From Escherichia phage vB_EcoM_VR25, in sequence record NC_028925.1: a DNA stretch of 64,000 bases, one strand, 5' to 3'. A model generated the notes under the pieces. The model did no database searches. It was not told the DNA's origin and saw nothing but the letters and a program-made list of their open reading frames with translations. Made by a program: the position numbers and the translations under genes. Shown piece by piece: positions 2,983 to 18,624 of this stretch (the stretch's first letter is position 1; every line of letters starts with the position of its first letter).

Positions 2983-4815
2983 TTATAGCGTCGCATTCAT
3001 CCAATCTTTGCGCAGCTTCGGTTCTTTACCGAAAAGCATTTCGAACAGTTCTTTCCAGTTTTCAGGTAATTGAACAACTTCGAATACTGGTTCGAGCAAT
3101 ACTCGCTTGTACTCGGAATCTTCCAGAGAACCCAGCCCCTTGATATATCTGATGGTATGCTTTGGAAGTTTATCCTTAGCTTCTTCATAATCAGGGAGAG
3201 AATAGAACCATTCTTGTTTATCTTTGAGCTGTGCAATAATAACAGGAGTTTTCACAAAGCGAATACGTCCTTCATGGAACAGCTCCGGCCAGTTACTGAA
3301 AAATGCCAATAACGATGGATAGATACTACCGACGCCATCCACATCCGCATCTGTCATGATAGCGATATTTCGGTAATTCATATTCTCGGCTGGTTGTCCA
3401 ATCGTTAATCCAGTAATCGCACACACATCAAAGGCTTCTGCGTTTTTCATAACTTCAACAGCTTTCAGACCCCATGTGTTTTTGAACTTACCGCGCAACG
3501 GATATGCACCTTGTAATTCGCGGTCACGAACCTTGATGAATGGACCCGTTGCAGAATCACCTTCGGTCAGGAACAAAGTCGTTTCCAGCTTGTCATTGCC
3601 CCATTCGTTGGCCTTGATATGCTTTTGTACCTTAGCCTTTGAAGCTTTCTTATTCGCCTTAGTCTCTGCTGCTTTCTCTGCAGCCAATTTACGAGCCAAT
3701 GCAGCTTCCACAATCGGCATAATCAGCGATTCATTTTTCAGAATAGCTTGTGCGATTTTCTTAGCATCAATTTGGATATGATTTCGAATCTCGCCAGCAG
3801 GAGAAGTCAATCGCTCCTTGGTCTGGGAATCAAATCGCATATTGCTCATATCGCGGATGAACATAAGCATGGTGAGGCATTCTTTGACTCGTGCTTTAGT
3901 AACTTCGATACCTTTGTATTTGCGCTTAATTGCTGGTTGGAGGTGTTCACAGATATCATCCATAACACATTCAACGTGGTGCCCACCATTCTTTGTATGA
4001 ATGTTGTTGACATAAGTCAGCTGACGGAAGCCGTCTGGGCTGGTCGTGAAAGCCATTGATACTGTATCAGTTTCCTGGATAACAACTTCGGTACCGAATT
4101 GCTTGGAGAACTTCTTGAAGTTGCCATCAACCTTTTTACCATTAAAGGTGAACTGAATATCCGGATAAACAACCGCAAGAGTCTGCAGACGGTCCAATGT
4201 AATATCCAGATAAATCTGGGACAAACTATTTTCTTCGAAGTGACTAAAGTCCGGAACAAAGATAACAGTTGTGCCTTTACCCTTAGATTTCTTGGTAGAC
4301 CAACCTTTGTTTTCCATACCGTTGGAGCAGTTAACAGTAATTTCATTTGCACCATCAGCGGTAATCCCTGTAAACAATACAGAGAAAATATTGGTCAGAG
4401 AAGACCCGACGCCATTCATCCCGCCAGTTTTACGTTCAGCATCATCACCGAAGTTACCACCTGCTTTTGGAATAGTCCATGCTGCAACAGGGCCAGGGAT
4501 TTGTTCACCGTTTTGGTCTGTAACCATTGCTTGTGGAATACCACGGCCATTATCAGAAACCGAAATCTGATTATCTTTAATTTGGACATCAATTTTATTG
4601 GCAAATTTAAAACTGGTGCGAATTGCTTCATCAACAGAGTTATCGATAATTTCATCAATCAGTTTTACAATACCAGGAACATAGCTTACGGACTTATATT
4701 CACCAAACAAGAATCGCTCATGCGCTTCATTTGAACTGGAACCAATATACATCCCAGAACGTTTTTTGATATGCTCGACGTCCGAGAGTACTTTAATTTC
4801 ATTATTAATCATCAT
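2983..4815 (-). CDS. 39: DNA topoisomerase II large subunit, uninterrupted 610 aa (GyrB-like)
   Basis: GyrB-type ATPase and TOPRIM-like sequence; one continuous ORF, so no separate gene 60 as in T4; T2-type organisation. Confidence 0.9.
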   Translation of the reverse strand: MMINNEIKVLSDVEHIKKRSGMYIGSSSNEAHERFLFGEYKSVSYVPGIVKLIDEIIDNSVDEAIRTSFKFANKIDVQIKDNQISVSDNGRGIPQAMVTDQNGEQIPGPVAAWTIPKAGGNFGDDAERKTGGMNGVGSSLTNIFSVLFTGITADGANEITVNCSNGMENKGWSTKKSKGKGTTVIFVPDFSHFEENSLSQIYLDITLDRLQTLAVVYPDIQFTFNGKKVDGNFKKFSKQFGTEVVIQETDTVSMAFTTSPDGFRQLTYVNNIHTKNGGHHVECVMDDICEHLQPAIKRKYKGIEVTKARVKECLTMLMFIRDMSNMRFDSQTKERLTSPAGEIRNHIQIDAKKIAQAILKNESLIMPIVEAALARKLAAEKAAETKANKKASKAKVQKHIKANEWGNDKLETTLFLTEGDSATGPFIKVRDRELQGAYPLRGKFKNTWGLKAVEVMKNAEAFDVCAITGLTIGQPAENMNYRNIAIMTDADVDGVGSIYPSLLAFFSNWPELFHEGRIRFVKTPVIIAQLKDKQEWFYSLPDYEEAKDKLPKHTIRYIKGLGSLEDSEYKRVLLEPVFEVVQLPENWKELFEMLFGKEPKLRKDWMNATL

Positions 4816-14192: not shown

Positions 14193-14426
14193 TTAAACAA
14201 TATCAGTCGGCGTAAACATTGCCTCGTTTTTGGTCTTCCAGTCAGCAGCATCAGTGACTACAGTTGAGTAGGCCGCTACCGCCGAAGGGAAAGTCTGATA
14301 ATGAGCATTAGCAATACGATGCGCATTAGAATAGATTTCAAACGGAACTGAAACCTCGGTACCTTTAACTTCTTTACCTTCACCAGCTGCATGCGTAAAG
14401 GTTTTGATATTAACGAAACCACCCAT
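14193..14426 (-). CDS. soc: small outer capsid protein Soc, 77 aa
   Basis: Motifs VNIKTF ... AHYQTFPS ... AAYSTV match T4 Soc by recall. Confidence 0.85.
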   Translation of the reverse strand: MGGFVNIKTFTHAAGEGKEVKGTEVSVPFEIYSNAHRIANAHYQTFPSAVAAYSTVVTDAADWKTKNEAMFTPTDIV

Positions 14427-14462
14427 AATAACTCCTTTGTTGTTTAATTACAGGTGTATTTA

Positions 14463-14678
14463 TTACGCATATTTCTTATCAATATAAAAATGACCGCCAC
14501 CTTTGATAAAGACCCAGAATAGATTTCTATCGTCTGTATCCCGACAGTAAAAATCATCTAACTGGAAATAGTTTTCTTCAGGGAATTCAAGATGTCGGCC
14601 GAGTTCTATTGCATCAGAACCGAACGCTTTAGTAGCGGGACGACCGTCATCGTCCCATTTCTTGAAATTGAATTTCAT
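14463..14678 (-). CDS. hypothetical protein, 71 aa (position of soc.1)
   Basis: ORF in the array. Confidence 0.45.
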   Translation of the reverse strand: MKFNFKKWDDDGRPATKAFGSDAIELGRHLEFPEENYFQLDDFYCRDTDDRNLFWVFIKGGGHFYIDKKYA

Positions 14679-14887
14679 TTTGAGTGCTCAGCAATCAGTT
14701 TTAAAGTCTCTTCATTAACCCAATCGAACATGTGCATATGGTCGGATTTAACCGTAATCAATTGAGTAATATGACGGAGCTGATTAGCTAAGAGCTCTTC
14801 AACGAGCTCGTGGTCAGCATTTTTAATTAACCATTCTGCTCTCTTCTTACGAGCTTTCTTAAGCTGACGTTTATTTAAACGAGACAT
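14675..14887 (-). CDS. hypothetical basic protein, 70 aa (position of soc.2)
   Basis: ATGA/TAATG-coupled ORF. Confidence 0.45.
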   Translation of the reverse strand: MSRLNKRQLKKARKKRAEWLIKNADHELVEELLANQLRHITQLITVKSDHMHMFDWVNEETLKLIAEHSK

Positions 14888-15408
14888 TAATAACCTCGGT
14901 CCTGACGAGCAAAGTTCTCAGCATTTTTCAGGTAATACAATTTAAAGATTTCTTCAGCCGTAAGACCAAGGCCCTGGAACATATTCAGAACAAAGTGCAG
15001 AATATCAATCATTTCAAATTTAATTTCGAGCTGGTCTTCAGGAGACAAATCGTTAATCAGGGTTTGTTGCATTTCGCCATGCTGCGCTTTCCATGGTTTC
15101 CATACTGCAGATGCAGCTTTCTCACCATTAGACATGCCACCTAATGCAGTAATCAGTTCACGGAATTCATCATCGATATAATCTTTCTGGTTGCGGAGCC
15201 AGGTAACAACTTCGCCAGCAGTCGCCAGATTATCAGGGTGTTCGTTATATTCTGGTTTTTCTTTTGCTAAACGAACCTGCAATGATTTCTGCATATCAAG
15301 CATTACTTGCAGTGGGTCTTTATCTTCGTGAATCAGAGCATTAAAATATGCTTCTTCGGCTTTGTCAACACCAGCAATCAGTTGTGAACATTCATTAAAA
15401 TGTGCCAT
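14887..15408 (-). CDS. 56: dCTPase/dUTPase-type nucleotide pyrophosphohydrolase (gp56-like), 173 aa
   Basis: Size and position match T4 gp56; all-alpha MazG-like composition. Confidence 0.7.
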   Translation of the reverse strand: MAHFNECSQLIAGVDKAEEAYFNALIHEDKDPLQVMLDMQKSLQVRLAKEKPEYNEHPDNLATAGEVVTWLRNQKDYIDDEFRELITALGGMSNGEKAASAVWKPWKAQHGEMQQTLINDLSPEDQLEIKFEMIDILHFVLNMFQGLGLTAEEIFKLYYLKNAENFARQDRGY

Positions 15409-15490
15409 TATTTTTCCTTATCAATTCATGTTGTTTGTATGTTAATTATATCATATTGAGTTGAAGCATAAATAAAAGAAAGGAGGATGT

Positions 15491-15688
15491 ATGCTAAAAC
15501 TATCTAGTCTAATTCAAGCCATTAAAGGCAGTCGTAAGCGAACGATTTTGGCCCTTTCGATACTCTGTTCAGTTCTTTTATGGAACTTCATTGTTGCCCC
15601 TATTGCATTGGCACATGGTCTTGTGCTTCCAGTCGTTGCCTTCGAATCAGTTGTAGATGTTTCACTGGCATTAATCGGCCTTATATAG
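15491..15688 (+). CDS. small hydrophobic membrane protein, 65 aa
   Basis: AAGGAGG Shine-Dalgarno 4 nt upstream of the ATG; plus strand in a minus-strand region; paralog of the next ORF. Confidence 0.5.
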   Translation: MLKLSSLIQAIKGSRKRTILALSILCSVLLWNFIVAPIALAHGLVLPVVAFESVVDVSLALIGLI

Positions 15689-15696
15689 GTGGAACT

Positions 15697-15897
15697 ATGG
15701 GAACATTATTCTATCAGATATGGAAATTAACCAGTAAGAAAGACAAGAAGCTTATCATGGGATTTTTAGCTCTTGATATTTTCCTGTGGAACTTACTGGT
15801 TGTACCTATCGCCGCAACACAAGGGGTACACTTACCCCAGGTCACAATGGGGCATATCCATTCCATCATCGGTTACTTTACCGGAATCCCTTCCTAA
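15697..15897 (+). CDS. small hydrophobic membrane protein, 66 aa, paralog of 15491-15688
   Basis: AGGTGG Shine-Dalgarno; shared motif FLWN(F/L)(I/L)V(A/V)PIA ... G(L/V)xLP. Confidence 0.5.
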   Translation: MGTLFYQIWKLTSKKDKKLIMGFLALDIFLWNLLVVPIAATQGVHLPQVTMGHIHSIIGYFTGIPS

Positions 15898-16922
15898 ACT
15901 TTTGCGTACTTCGAAAGTCGCATTCTTGCCATCAACCCTTGGGCAACGTTATCAGCCATATATGATTCGATTTGTTCAGGGGTTGCCCCTTCTGATTTAA
16001 CCATCTCATTTATGTCTTTTGTGTGCCACGGCGCATTATCCCAGAACATAACGGCTTCACCAGCCTCAACGAGTTTCTTCATACGTTTAATCGTATCAGG
16101 ATGTCTTGGCTCGTTGTCCATTACCCATACTCTGGTTTCAGCATAAGGAACCGCTTCCAATGACAATGTGCCGCCAGTTATCGCAATGCTGTTAGGGATA
16201 AACAAACTATCAATCGGACCTTCCATTACCCACACGCGCTTACGCTCATCAATCTTGTCTACCCCGTAGACTTTGGAAGCTTCTGGGTGGGCTTTGATGG
16301 TGATATATTTTTGTGGTGCATCTTTGCGAAGAGCTCGTCCTTGGAAAGATTCGATTTCTTTTTTGCCGTTGAAGATAGGAATAACCAAGCGTGGTTCATT
16401 CGTTTCATTCTTATACGTCCCAGGATTAACGGAGTTAACTAATGCAGGCCATTTGTTTGTAAACCATAGCCGGTCCCAAACACCAGCCGGAATACACCGA
16501 CTTTTTACATACTTAACTATCGGATGCGCTTCTGGTAAAGTATCGAGTCTTTCACAAAAAGCAAGCTGCTCGATAACCGGAGTTTTTTCTGGTTCTTTCG
16601 GAGTTTCTGCAACTTCAGTACGTTGTCGACCAAAGGCATTCTCCTTGTACTTCTCGACCATATATTCCCGGTGTAAATCTGGCTCAAACTCTTTTATGTA
16701 TTTGCTTATATGAGTGGAGTAGTCACAGTTAAAACATTTCACATAAACTGCACCATCAGCCGGATTGGTATACGCCCAGAATCGGGCCTTATGTGAATCC
16801 TTCTGGGAGTCGCCACAAACTTTACATCTGCAGTTTGCCTTAAATGTGCTCCCGGTGACTTCTCTATAACGTGGTTGATACGATAAAGCTCTGACCGCAA
16901 ATTCTTTATCAATATATGACAT
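15894..16922 (-). CDS. 61: DNA primase gp61, 342 aa
   Basis: Zinc-ribbon CxxC...CxxC and primase core; same length as T4 gp61. Confidence 0.9.
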   Translation of the reverse strand: MSYIDKEFAVRALSYQPRYREVTGSTFKANCRCKVCGDSQKDSHKARFWAYTNPADGAVYVKCFNCDYSTHISKYIKEFEPDLHREYMVEKYKENAFGRQRTEVAETPKEPEKTPVIEQLAFCERLDTLPEAHPIVKYVKSRCIPAGVWDRLWFTNKWPALVNSVNPGTYKNETNEPRLVIPIFNGKKEIESFQGRALRKDAPQKYITIKAHPEASKVYGVDKIDERKRVWVMEGPIDSLFIPNSIAITGGTLSLEAVPYAETRVWVMDNEPRHPDTIKRMKKLVEAGEAVMFWDNAPWHTKDINEMVKSEGATPEQIESYMADNVAQGLMARMRLSKYAKV

Positions 16923-17141
16923 AGTTTCCTCATTTCAATGGCCCCGGAGGACCATTATACTGTAGGTTTATCGTCTTTGTTCTTACGCTTTTTTGATGGG
17001 ATTTGTTCAGGGCCTTTATTGACAACTGCCCCGGAAGTGGTACCTGTTGCGATATTAGTTGGGTTTCCGCCAGCGTCACCGGCAACCATATCTTCGTTGA
17101 TAAAATCTTTGAATGTTTTCATAACACCCCCTTTCCGCTAT

Positions 17142-17333
17142 TTATACAACGAAGATGGCTTTATCACCATTTGCATCAGTCACTTCATAAGTGTCTTCAT
17201 GATACAACGGAATAATCCAGGTAACACCATCATCAGCAATAACATGGATTGCTTCTTGGTCTTGCGACACGATTTCATATTCTTCAAAAATCTCGAATAC
17301 GGAAATCTTAGAGCCCGTACACATTGCACTCAT
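17142..17333 (-). CDS. hypothetical acidic protein, 63 aa
   Basis: ORF in the array. Confidence 0.4.
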   Translation of the reverse strand: MSAMCTGSKISVFEIFEEYEIVSQDQEAIHVIADDGVTWIIPLYHEDTYEVTDANGDKAIFVV

Positions 17334-17530: not shown

Positions 17531-17890
17531 TTAACCTCGTTTCATGAAGGCATTAAAAATCTGGTCGTCAATAGCAATAGACGATTCTTGAGCTTTGGCC
17601 CAAACCCCTTCCAGAATGTCATTCGCTTCAGTAGATATCATGACCCCAATTTCAGGATTTCCAGTTATCCAGATTGCGCAATCGCGCACATTCTTTTTAT
17701 CAAATGGATATCCACGAGTATCTTCATAAGGTCCATCCATTACCATAAATGAACGAGCCTTTATGATAAAATCATCTTTAACGATAATATAACCAATCGC
17801 CTGATTAAACCGAGGCTCACGAAATTCATAACGAGCATTACCATCATTATTGCTGACCAGTTCAAAATCCAGAAAATTATAATAACTCAT
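17531..17890 (-). CDS. hypothetical protein, 119 aa, C-terminal DDQIFNAFMKRG
   Basis: C-terminus and its 3' nucleotide sequence repeated in the next gene. Confidence 0.5.
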   Translation of the reverse strand: MSYYNFLDFELVSNNDGNARYEFREPRFNQAIGYIIVKDDFIIKARSFMVMDGPYEDTRGYPFDKKNVRDCAIWITGNPEIGVMISTEANDILEGVWAKAQESSIAIDDQIFNAFMKRG

Positions 17891-17891
17891 A

Positions 17892-18329
17892 TTAATCTCG
17901 CTTCATAAAGGCATTAAAAATTTGGTCGTCAACTGAATAAACAGGATTTTCCAGAATTTTCAAAAGACTGTTTTTGATGTACTTGCTAGGGATACTTGCA
18001 TTAATAACATCATCAACTAATTCGCTGTTGTGATTAATATTGTTGAATTCAAACCCTTCAAATGTTACTTTATGAGGAACACCCCCAGAAAACAGATGTG
18101 TCAATTCAATCATTGTATTACGCGTAAGCGGTTTGGTTACCATTTTAGGGAAATCTTTCCACTGATTTAATTCTTTGTTAAGAAGTTTATGAGCAAATAC
18201 AATTCTATCATCACTATCAACAAGAAAATAACCCAGATATTGAATCTCGTCGCTCCAAAACACCCTGTAGGCCTGTGCATTTGGATTTTTACAACGAAGT
18301 TTTTTGATAACCAAATTTCTGTTAATCAT
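17892..18329 (-). CDS. hypothetical protein, about 145 aa, C-terminal DDQIFNAFMKRD
   Basis: Start set at an internal ATG just after the sp stop; the longer track ORF overlaps sp. Confidence 0.5.
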   Translation of the reverse strand: MINRNLVIKKLRCKNPNAQAYRVFWSDEIQYLGYFLVDSDDRIVFAHKLLNKELNQWKDFPKMVTKPLTRNTMIELTHLFSGGVPHKVTFEGFEFNNINHNSELVDDVINASIPSKYIKNSLLKILENPVYSVDDQIFNAFMKRD

Positions 18330-18330
18330 T

Positions 18331-18624
18331 TTATTCACCTGTAACTTCTTTGACGATGTTTTCATTTTCAAAGTTAGGGTCACAATACAACACGTAATTA
18401 TACTGCATAACCCCACCAGATGCCAACTGGTCAGATACTTCTTTGACCTTGTTTGGTTGGTCACGTTTAGTGATGTTCATGATGTCCGCATAAATCTGGT
18501 GCTCAACTGCTTCCTGGTCAGCGGTCATTGACCACTCGCATAAGTCTTTATCATAACCAGCGGTAACTGGAGCTGCATGACATGAAGCGAGGACTAAGAT
18601 TGCTGCGATAGATAACTTTTTCAT
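18331..18624 (-). CDS. sp: Spackle periplasmic protein (Sp), 97 aa
   Basis: Signal peptide plus GYDKDLCEWSMTADQ ... GGVMQYNYVLYCD, matching T4 Sp by recall. Confidence 0.9.
   Translation of the reverse strand: MKKLSIAAILVLASCHAAPVTAGYDKDLCEWSMTADQEAVEHQIYADIMNITKRDQPNKVKEVSDQLASGGVMQYNYVLYCDPNFENENIVKEVTGE

Follow-up and report, generated by a model that had tools for sequence, protein, structure and literature searches.

Between gene 56 and gene 61 of Escherichia phage vB_EcoM_VR25, two small open reading frames (ORFs), here called ORF1 and ORF2, run opposite to every neighbouring gene. The question raised by this locus is whether they are genes at all and, if so, when they would be expressed and where their products would act. 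It was addressed in a stretch of 64,000 nucleotides from this phage (NC_028925.1), called the window below, which belongs to a T-even phage of the genus Gaprivervirus and is 99.2% identical to phage VR7 over the 601 bases around the pair. The favoured answer, to which a probability of roughly 0.6 is given, is that ORF1 and ORF2 are genuine late genes of one T-even family and that their products are membrane proteins, old paralogues of each other, acting at the inner membrane late in infection. A preliminary description had reported the two ORFs of 65 and 66 amino acids, their Shine-Dalgarno sequences and their orientation against all neighbours. Their coordinates and sequences were confirmed, and every neighbouring gene does lie on the minus strand. 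The features of the pair are as follows.

15491–15688, plus strand: ORF1, from ATG at 15491 to TAG at 15686–15688, 65 amino acids, type A of the family PHROG 2024, corresponding to VR25 gp031 and VR7ORF033w
15697–15897, plus strand: ORF2, from ATG at 15697 to TAA at 15895–15897, 66 amino acids, type B of PHROG 2024, corresponding to VR25/VR26 gp032
15480–15486, plus strand: Shine-Dalgarno sequence of ORF1, AAGGAGG, read directly
15687–15692, plus strand: Shine-Dalgarno sequence of ORF2, AGGTGG, weaker and overlapping the ORF1 stop codon, read directly
15467–15474, plus strand: putative late-type (gp55) promoter core CATAAATA, recognised by the conservation of ATAAATA across lineages, with a predicted transcript start at about 15480

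ORF1 and ORF2 are real, conserved coding genes under purifying selection. Both match the profile of PHROG 2024, a catalogued family without an assigned function, ORF1 over residues 1–65 of 65 (E value 3.1e-26) and ORF2 over residues 1–64 (E value 3.1e-27). Compared directly by BLASTP, they share 39% identity over the central 38 amino acids (E value 3e-7), and a common motif reads LLWNFIVAPIALAHGLVLP in ORF1 and FLWNLLVVPIAATQGVHLP in ORF2. The paralogy claimed in the preliminary description is borne out by this match and by the full-length match of both proteins to the same family. Exact protein matches exist in VR25 and VR7 for ORF1 and in VR25/VR26 gp032 for ORF2, and VR25 gp031 and gp032 are deposited as hypothetical. 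A search for homologues in T4-like phages (tblastn), which the preliminary description had proposed, returned ORF1-type relatives in about 700 phage records, from Tequatrovirus including T4 and T2, Mosigvirus including RB69, and Gaprivervirus. ORF2-type relatives were found in about 110 records, from Dhakavirus, several T4-like genera infecting Klebsiella and Enterobacter, and some Gaprivervirus. Pairwise ratios of non-synonymous to synonymous substitution rates (dN/dS) are 0.12–0.22 in Tequatrovirus, 0.10 in Mosigvirus, 0.07–0.15 in Dhakavirus and 0.35–0.63 in Gaprivervirus; between genera, synonymous sites are saturated and the proteins can still be aligned. All homologues compared have AGGAGG or AAGGAG as the equivalent of the ORF1 Shine-Dalgarno sequence, and in phages with type B only, AGGAGG occupies the position of the ORF2 sequence AGGTGG.

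The T4 homologue comprises 66 codons at 17738–17938 of NC_000866 (L003 3239–3439), is preceded by AAGGAGG and GATAAATA, and sits in the 309 bases that separate dam from gene 61, where the reference record has no coding sequence. Its exact sequence is absent from the NCBI and UniRef protein sets, and near-identical copies from other Tequatroviruses are deposited as hypothetical proteins.

T4-type phages transcribe their early and middle genes leftward and their late genes mostly rightward. The opposite strand on which the pair lies, like the family throughout T-even genomes, is the late strand, a point that the preliminary description had missed. When the 70 bases before the gene are compared across six lineages, conservation is confined to two blocks, the ribosome-binding site and ATAAATA; the latter is invariant, lies 14–22 nucleotides upstream of the start codon and is flanked by bases that differ. 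The promoter core takes these forms.

Gaprivervirus: CATAAATA; T4: GATAAATA
Tequatroviruses without dam, RB69 and Dhakavirus: AATAAATA; Klebsiella phages: TATAAATA

The published late-promoter consensus is TATAAATA at −13 to −6, with a poorly conserved first T (PMC1524935). ATAAATA occurs at seven sites in the window (2980, 14457, 15468, 17139, 41090, 52401 and 59718) versus 21.5 ± 5.2 in shuffled sequences, an approximately three-fold depletion, and the copy at 15468–15474 is the sole one on the plus strand. Such a depletion would fit selection that keeps stray late promoters out of an early region. Two of the minus-strand sites precede soc, which is a late gene, and 61.1. The latter site is a perfect TATAAATA at 17139–17146, 17 nucleotides upstream of the start codon of 61.1 (16955–17122), and late transcription of 61.1 and 61 from it would meet the late transcript of ORF1 and ORF2 head-on across gene 61. 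We infer a late promoter at 15467–15474 with a transcript start near 15480, from which ORF2, since it has no promoter motif of its own, would be co-transcribed with ORF1. Transcription of the pair would run rightward from this promoter of the gp55/gp33/gp45 type, which would make the two ORFs late genes within surroundings that are early and transcribed leftward. No entry near RB69 position 16032 was found in the late-promoter supplement of Nolan et al. 2006 (PMC1524935).

What surrounds the pair bears on where its transcript would end and on a possible connection with replication.

14887–15408, minus strand: gene 56 (dCTPase), neighbour of the pair
15894–16922, minus strand: gene 61 (DNA primase), neighbour of the pair and convergent with it
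15894–15897, across both strands: overlapping convergent stop codons, TAA of ORF2 and TAG of gene 61, read from the sequence
15445–15470, minus strand: MotA-type middle promoter of gene 56, with the MotA box TATGCTTCA at 15470–15462, a spacing of 11 nucleotides and the −10 box TATAAT at 15450–15445

The overlap of the two stop codons leaves no space for a terminator, so that a late transcript leaving the pair would have to continue, antisense, into the primase gene. Terminator-like matches at 15823–15838 (minus strand) and 15978–15990 (plus strand) both lie within coding sequence. The first of these is a hairpin, GGGGTACACTTACCCC, inside ORF2, about 56 nucleotides downstream of the gene 61 stop codon; its terminator-like score is on the minus strand, and it falls within the 86 nucleotides that are deleted in phage EAWsc9. 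As a further layer, the late transcript antisense to gene 61 may help to shut down early replication genes.

The preliminary description had pointed out that this interval contains oriA and dam in T4, both of which are annotated there in the T4 record, and had considered a link to origin function. According to the record, oriA is located where gene 56 begins and uses the transcript of that gene as primer RNA; the T4 homologue of the pair is about 1 kb away, with dam in between. The gene 56 middle promoter of the window has its homologue upstream of gene 56 in T4, next to the annotated oriA, and stands back-to-back with the ORF1 late promoter, with a few bases of overlap. However, the small gene does not keep a constant position relative to this oriA-priming promoter. 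It is separated from gene 56 by dam in T4, by a homing endonuclease gene in VR5 and by two unrelated genes in Klebsiella phages, and nothing intervenes in RB69 and the window, where the interval between genes 56 and 61 holds neither dam nor any gene besides the pair. Its other end is fixed: in T4, RB69, VR26, the window and a metagenomic T4-like phage (L027), the stop codon of the small gene overlaps that of gene 61. A role linked to the origin finds no support, since the gene tracks gene 61 in every lineage, whatever separates it from gene 56, and is not consistently next to the gene 56 promoter.

On the far side of gene 56, the homing endonuclease gene segF, which lies between soc and gene 56 in VR7 and T4, is missing from the window at 14426–14887; dam is lacking from this phage as well. 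Instead of segF, two small minus-strand ORFs are found, at 14463–14678 (with a sub-threshold match to DUF7422) and at 14675–14887.

The predicted architecture of the proteins is simple. Hydropathy indicates five basic residues among the first 18, a hydrophobic span at about residues 19–41 and a moderately hydrophobic, amphipathic C-terminal segment. An AlphaFold2 model built on an alignment of 22 sequences has helices at 2–13, 15–41 and 51–61, with a mean predicted local distance difference test score (pLDDT) of 77. For the RB69 homologue RB69ORF029w, TMHMM predicts one span at 21–41, and no signal peptide is predicted (Nolan et al. 2006, PMC1524935 supplement). The membrane-span prediction proposed in the preliminary description has thus been obtained from three sources, each giving one span. 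Across 142 distinct family sequences, W31 is conserved in 134, N32 in 141, P37 in 141, G43 in 140, P47 in 130 and an acidic residue (E or D) at position 52 in 140. The resulting motif, W-N-x4-P followed by G-x3-P and the acidic residue, is complete in ORF1 and lacks only the acidic residue in ORF2 (G52).

The positive-inside rule suggests an orientation with the N-terminus inside and the C-terminus outside, and the mid-membrane asparagine suggests self-association or docking onto another membrane protein. Each product would accordingly be pictured as a membrane protein of about 65 amino acids with a basic amphipathic N-terminal helix in the cytoplasm and a single span bearing the near-invariant Trp-Asn pair and Pro. 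A short Gly..Pro loop would follow, and then an amphipathic C-terminal helix with the near-invariant acidic residue, presumably at the periplasmic face. A dual-start motif like that of lambda S was considered and rejected: T4 has Met1 and Met6, which other lineages do not keep.

ORF1 and ORF2 represent two old types of the family, A and B, with about 25% identity overall. This value, and the fact that each copy is far closer to copies in other genera, rule out a recent tandem duplication. ORF2 is 70–78% identical to the single type B copy of Dhakavirus and Klebsiella phages, and the adjacent gp61 is 64–69% identical to theirs. Type B has diverged about as much as gene 61 and therefore looks vertically inherited with it. 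ORF1 is 46–51% identical to the T4 and RB69 copies, below the 60% of gp61, and being more diverged than gp61 it cannot be a recent import from T4 or RB69. The simplest reading of these comparisons would be an old duplication followed by the loss of one type in most genera. Type B keeps the ancestral position against gene 61, and type A carries the predicted promoter.

In Gaprivervirus, type B seems to be undergoing such a loss. ORF2 is intact in the window phage, VR26 and about eight other records of the genus. In VR7 (L001 3348–3617), its homologue has a +1 frameshift, which may also be a sequencing error; in VR20 (L007 about 3207–3405), ATG is followed directly by TGA (stop at codon 2), and two nucleotides are deleted; and in EAWsc9 (L002 2334–2452), the start codon is missing and 86 nucleotides are deleted. 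Genomes of the SP18 type retain only ORF2 residues 28–66, consistent with the deletion of EAWsc9. ORF1 is intact in all of these phages. The ORF2 of the window itself has Gly at the acidic position 52, the only G among the 142 sequences, where the other intact Gaprivervirus copies keep Glu, and the type B copy of P479 has lost the conserved Pro47.

The disruption of type B in sister phages, its weaker ribosome-binding site and the unique E52G exchange argue that the two types are probably functionally redundant and that type B is being lost in Gaprivervirus. It is possible, if rather doubtful, that ORF2 is instead a working gene with a role of its own, for example as the hetero-oligomer partner of ORF1. 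Its intact state in the window phage and about eight further records would fit such a role, as would a usable ribosome-binding site placed for translation after ORF1 and the good conservation of type B in other genera (dN/dS 0.07–0.19). Three independent disruptions in phages that keep ORF1 intact speak against it, however, together with a Shine-Dalgarno sequence weaker than in phages having type B only, the Gly at a position that is acidic in 140 of 142 sequences and the missing Pro47 of P479.

Distant relatives extend the family beyond T-even phages. When 1.8 billion representative proteins were searched with a profile, 16 matches were obtained, including small proteins that share the motif; some of the matches come from other T4-like phages and occupy the same locus. 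No relative was found when the GTDB representative genomes were scanned with an alignment of the prophage type. An E. coli prophage in yegD carries a family member in 25 of 5,426 complete genomes, and related viral contigs also carry it. One prophage-type member is 33% identical to ORF1 over 58 amino acids (E value 6e-9). The gene order in the prophage is given in two parts.

Part 1: tail tip, membrane-anchored coiled-coil protein of 81–87 amino acids, T4 e-like lysozyme (opposite strand), GIY-YIG endonuclease
Part 2: protein of about 190 amino acids, protein of about 105 amino acids, and finally the family member, followed by the attachment site

In these prophages and contigs, the family member closes the late operon and lies 1.5–2 kb from the T4 e-like lysozyme gene and from the gene of the coiled-coil protein, which is named DUF2730. 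The Mu releasin, a member of the DUF2730 family, has an accessory function in lysis (PMC9239132). The prophage lysozyme has no signal-anchor and would therefore need a holin. The only annotated small membrane proteins of the prophage late operon are the family member, the DUF2730-like protein and a probable tail-tip fragment. The prophage is AT-rich, about 34 kb in size and integrated in yegD via a serine recombinase, as seen in E. coli NZ_LR882990.1 (L028, about 1814950–1848650); its annotation breaks up many of the structural genes, and its GIY-YIG endonuclease genes seem unusual for a temperate phage. A second group of relatives is found in siphophage contigs. In L031 (1–12186) and L023, a single strand encodes a tail fibre, a gp38-type adhesin, the tail tip, the family member, a minor tail protein, a chaperone and the tape measure, which is an unusual order. 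On a short metagenomic contig (L024 129–1383), a family member lies directly upstream of a gene for a RelA/SpoT-domain protein of 352 amino acids.

The family would do its work at the inner membrane as infection draws to a close. Tentatively, because of the late timing, the architecture and the prophage neighbourhood near the lysozyme gene, it is proposed to have an accessory part in lysis or at the envelope, either as a holin-like protein or by modulating the holin, and not to be the main holin itself. The proteins are small and have at least one membrane span (about residues 19–41), as a holin would, and three of 18 members gave a sub-threshold match to GTA_holin_3TM (E value 0.03). With lambda S105 and phage 21 S68, holins and pinholins, they share the small size, the membrane-embedded nature, probably the late timing and polar residues in the span that could drive oligomerisation; distant relatives also lie in the terminal late cluster with a lysozyme gene. 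In contrast to these holins, the family has no sequence or fold match, one span instead of two or three, and its charged end at the N-terminus instead of the C-terminus, and in T-even phages, which have holin T, it does not stand beside the endolysin. The Mu gp25 releasin (DUF2730) is likewise a small single-pass lysis accessory protein, and a DUF2730-like gene neighbours the family member in prophages. The two are not homologous, however: the releasin is oriented N-out/C-in and has a long cytoplasmic coiled coil, whereas the family is predicted to be N-in with a short C-terminal helix. It is still more speculative, and on balance unlikely, that the family belongs to the late control of envelope and lysis in T-even phages, as a component overlooked for decades for want of an annotation in the T4 reference genome, for instance as a small oligomerising membrane protein that tunes the triggering of holin T or lysis inhibition, and that it serves as holin or partner in the E. 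coli prophages.

Several observations weigh against these interpretations. Scans of both ORFs and 18 diverse members against Pfam, NCBIfam and PADLOC gave nothing significant, a profile search of PDB sequences gave chance membrane-helix matches only, and Foldseek with the AlphaFold2 model retrieved only family members from BFVD and none from PDB, so that no significant similarity to a holin, antiholin, spanin or other characterised family was found in these sets. The charged C-terminal tail of holins is not present; the C-termini are hydrophobic (…SLALIGLI, …GYFTGIPS), and the basic cluster is N-terminal. Endolysin and holin genes are not near the locus in the T-even phages examined, and a lysozyme gene within about 2 kb occurs only in the distant prophage relatives; in the siphophage contigs, the relative lies among tail genes and no lysozyme gene is nearby. 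Even in the prophages, DUF2730 is a name given by PGAP to the coiled-coil neighbour, whose Pfam score of 22.3 bits compares with a threshold of 24.9. Lysis of T4 depends on gene t, and to our knowledge classical r-mutant genetics never mapped a locus here. The promoter and the translation of the pair are deduced from sequence only, and the predicted leader of the late transcript is very short, at about 11 nucleotides. Two homologues are labelled "Holin" or "holin family protein" with no stated basis, and no weight was given to these labels. "DNA packaging ATPase", found on some other homologues, is an annotation error, the proteins being hydrophobic and 66 amino acids long. A literature search on the function of the family, a T4 transcript and ribosome profiling found nothing relevant.

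The pair may also modulate a host or phage membrane protein without involvement in lysis, by superinfection exclusion, immunity or the block of a late-triggered membrane defence, which is considered rather improbable. Size and single-pass architecture are typical of small regulatory membrane proteins, and a mid-membrane asparagine favours helix-helix docking. Moreover, the distance to sp (18331–18624), a periplasmic exclusion gene, is about 2.5 kb, the siphophage relatives are located just after the tail-tip gene like the exclusion gene cor of T1/phi80-type phages, and the replacement and loss of types between genera would suit an arms race. The T4 exclusion genes imm and sp are nevertheless early genes on the leftward strand, acting from early times, whereas the only conserved promoter of the family is of the late type. 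Imm and Sp (spackle) resemble the family as small T-even envelope proteins, and sp is situated in the same gene 61 neighbourhood, but there is no sequence similarity: neither Imm nor Spackle was matched in Pfam at E values up to 10, nor was any PADLOC model. The strong purifying selection (dN/dS about 0.1) and the retention of the motif across genera into prophages are also unlike a fast-evolving counter-defence gene. Both the exclusion-peptide and the toxin-like idea of the preliminary description are made less likely, as worded there, by the late type of the promoter and by the lack of matches to type I toxin, Imm or Spackle families in Pfam. A reading as peptides in the style of type I toxins, killing or depolarising the host, would fit the small size, the hydrophobicity, the one span and the basic end of the proteins; Hok, Ldr, Ibs and TisB are likewise short, hydrophobic and single-span. 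Early leftward transcription through gene 61 towards gene 56 would yield RNA antisense to the pair, and one of the 18 members weakly matches Ldr_toxin (E value 0.1). That match is not significant, however, and no other toxin family appeared in the scans. At 65 amino acids, the proteins exceed most type I toxins, they have no cognate antisense RNA gene or other dedicated antitoxin RNA feature, and the gene is conserved within the late operon of prophages. A lytic phage that already has a holin would have little need of such a toxin, which is accordingly very unlikely.

Yet less credit, close to none, is given to the idea that the transcript matters more than the proteins, as a late antisense RNA that shuts off the primase gene and gene 56 or disturbs the oriA-type promoter, with the ORFs being secondary. 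It would account for the stop-on-stop overlap with gene 61, terminator-free and conserved in all lineages, and, in the window, for the back-to-back placement of the late promoter and the MotA box that belongs to the gene 56/oriA-type promoter; the perfect TATAAATA upstream of 61.1 on the minus strand would add convergent late transcription across gene 61. Selection is clearly at the level of the protein, though, as the low dN/dS, the saturated synonymous sites between genera and the invariant residues indicate. Furthermore, the prophage relatives have no primase gene downstream, and in T4, dam lies between the small gene and the gene 56 promoter. An antisense effect may coexist with the protein, yet the conservation of the locus cannot be due mainly to it.

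The reading of the pair as late membrane-protein genes brings several new points. These are the probable late status of the genes, their near-universal presence beside gene 61 in enterobacterial T-even phages, the paralogy of types A and B and the decay of the latter, the remote relatives close to a lysozyme gene in prophages, and the gap in the T4 reference annotation. In the T4 reference genome, a conserved, selected and apparently late membrane-protein gene is left unannotated between dam and gene 61, and screens or proteomics that rely on this annotation would miss it. The tandem pair of the window represents a natural experiment, in which two ancient versions of the gene stand side by side and one is decaying, arguing for the same job. 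Once shown, a function for the family would add a component to the late programme of T-even phages, most plausibly at the cell envelope, and would apply to about 800 phages and some E. coli prophages.

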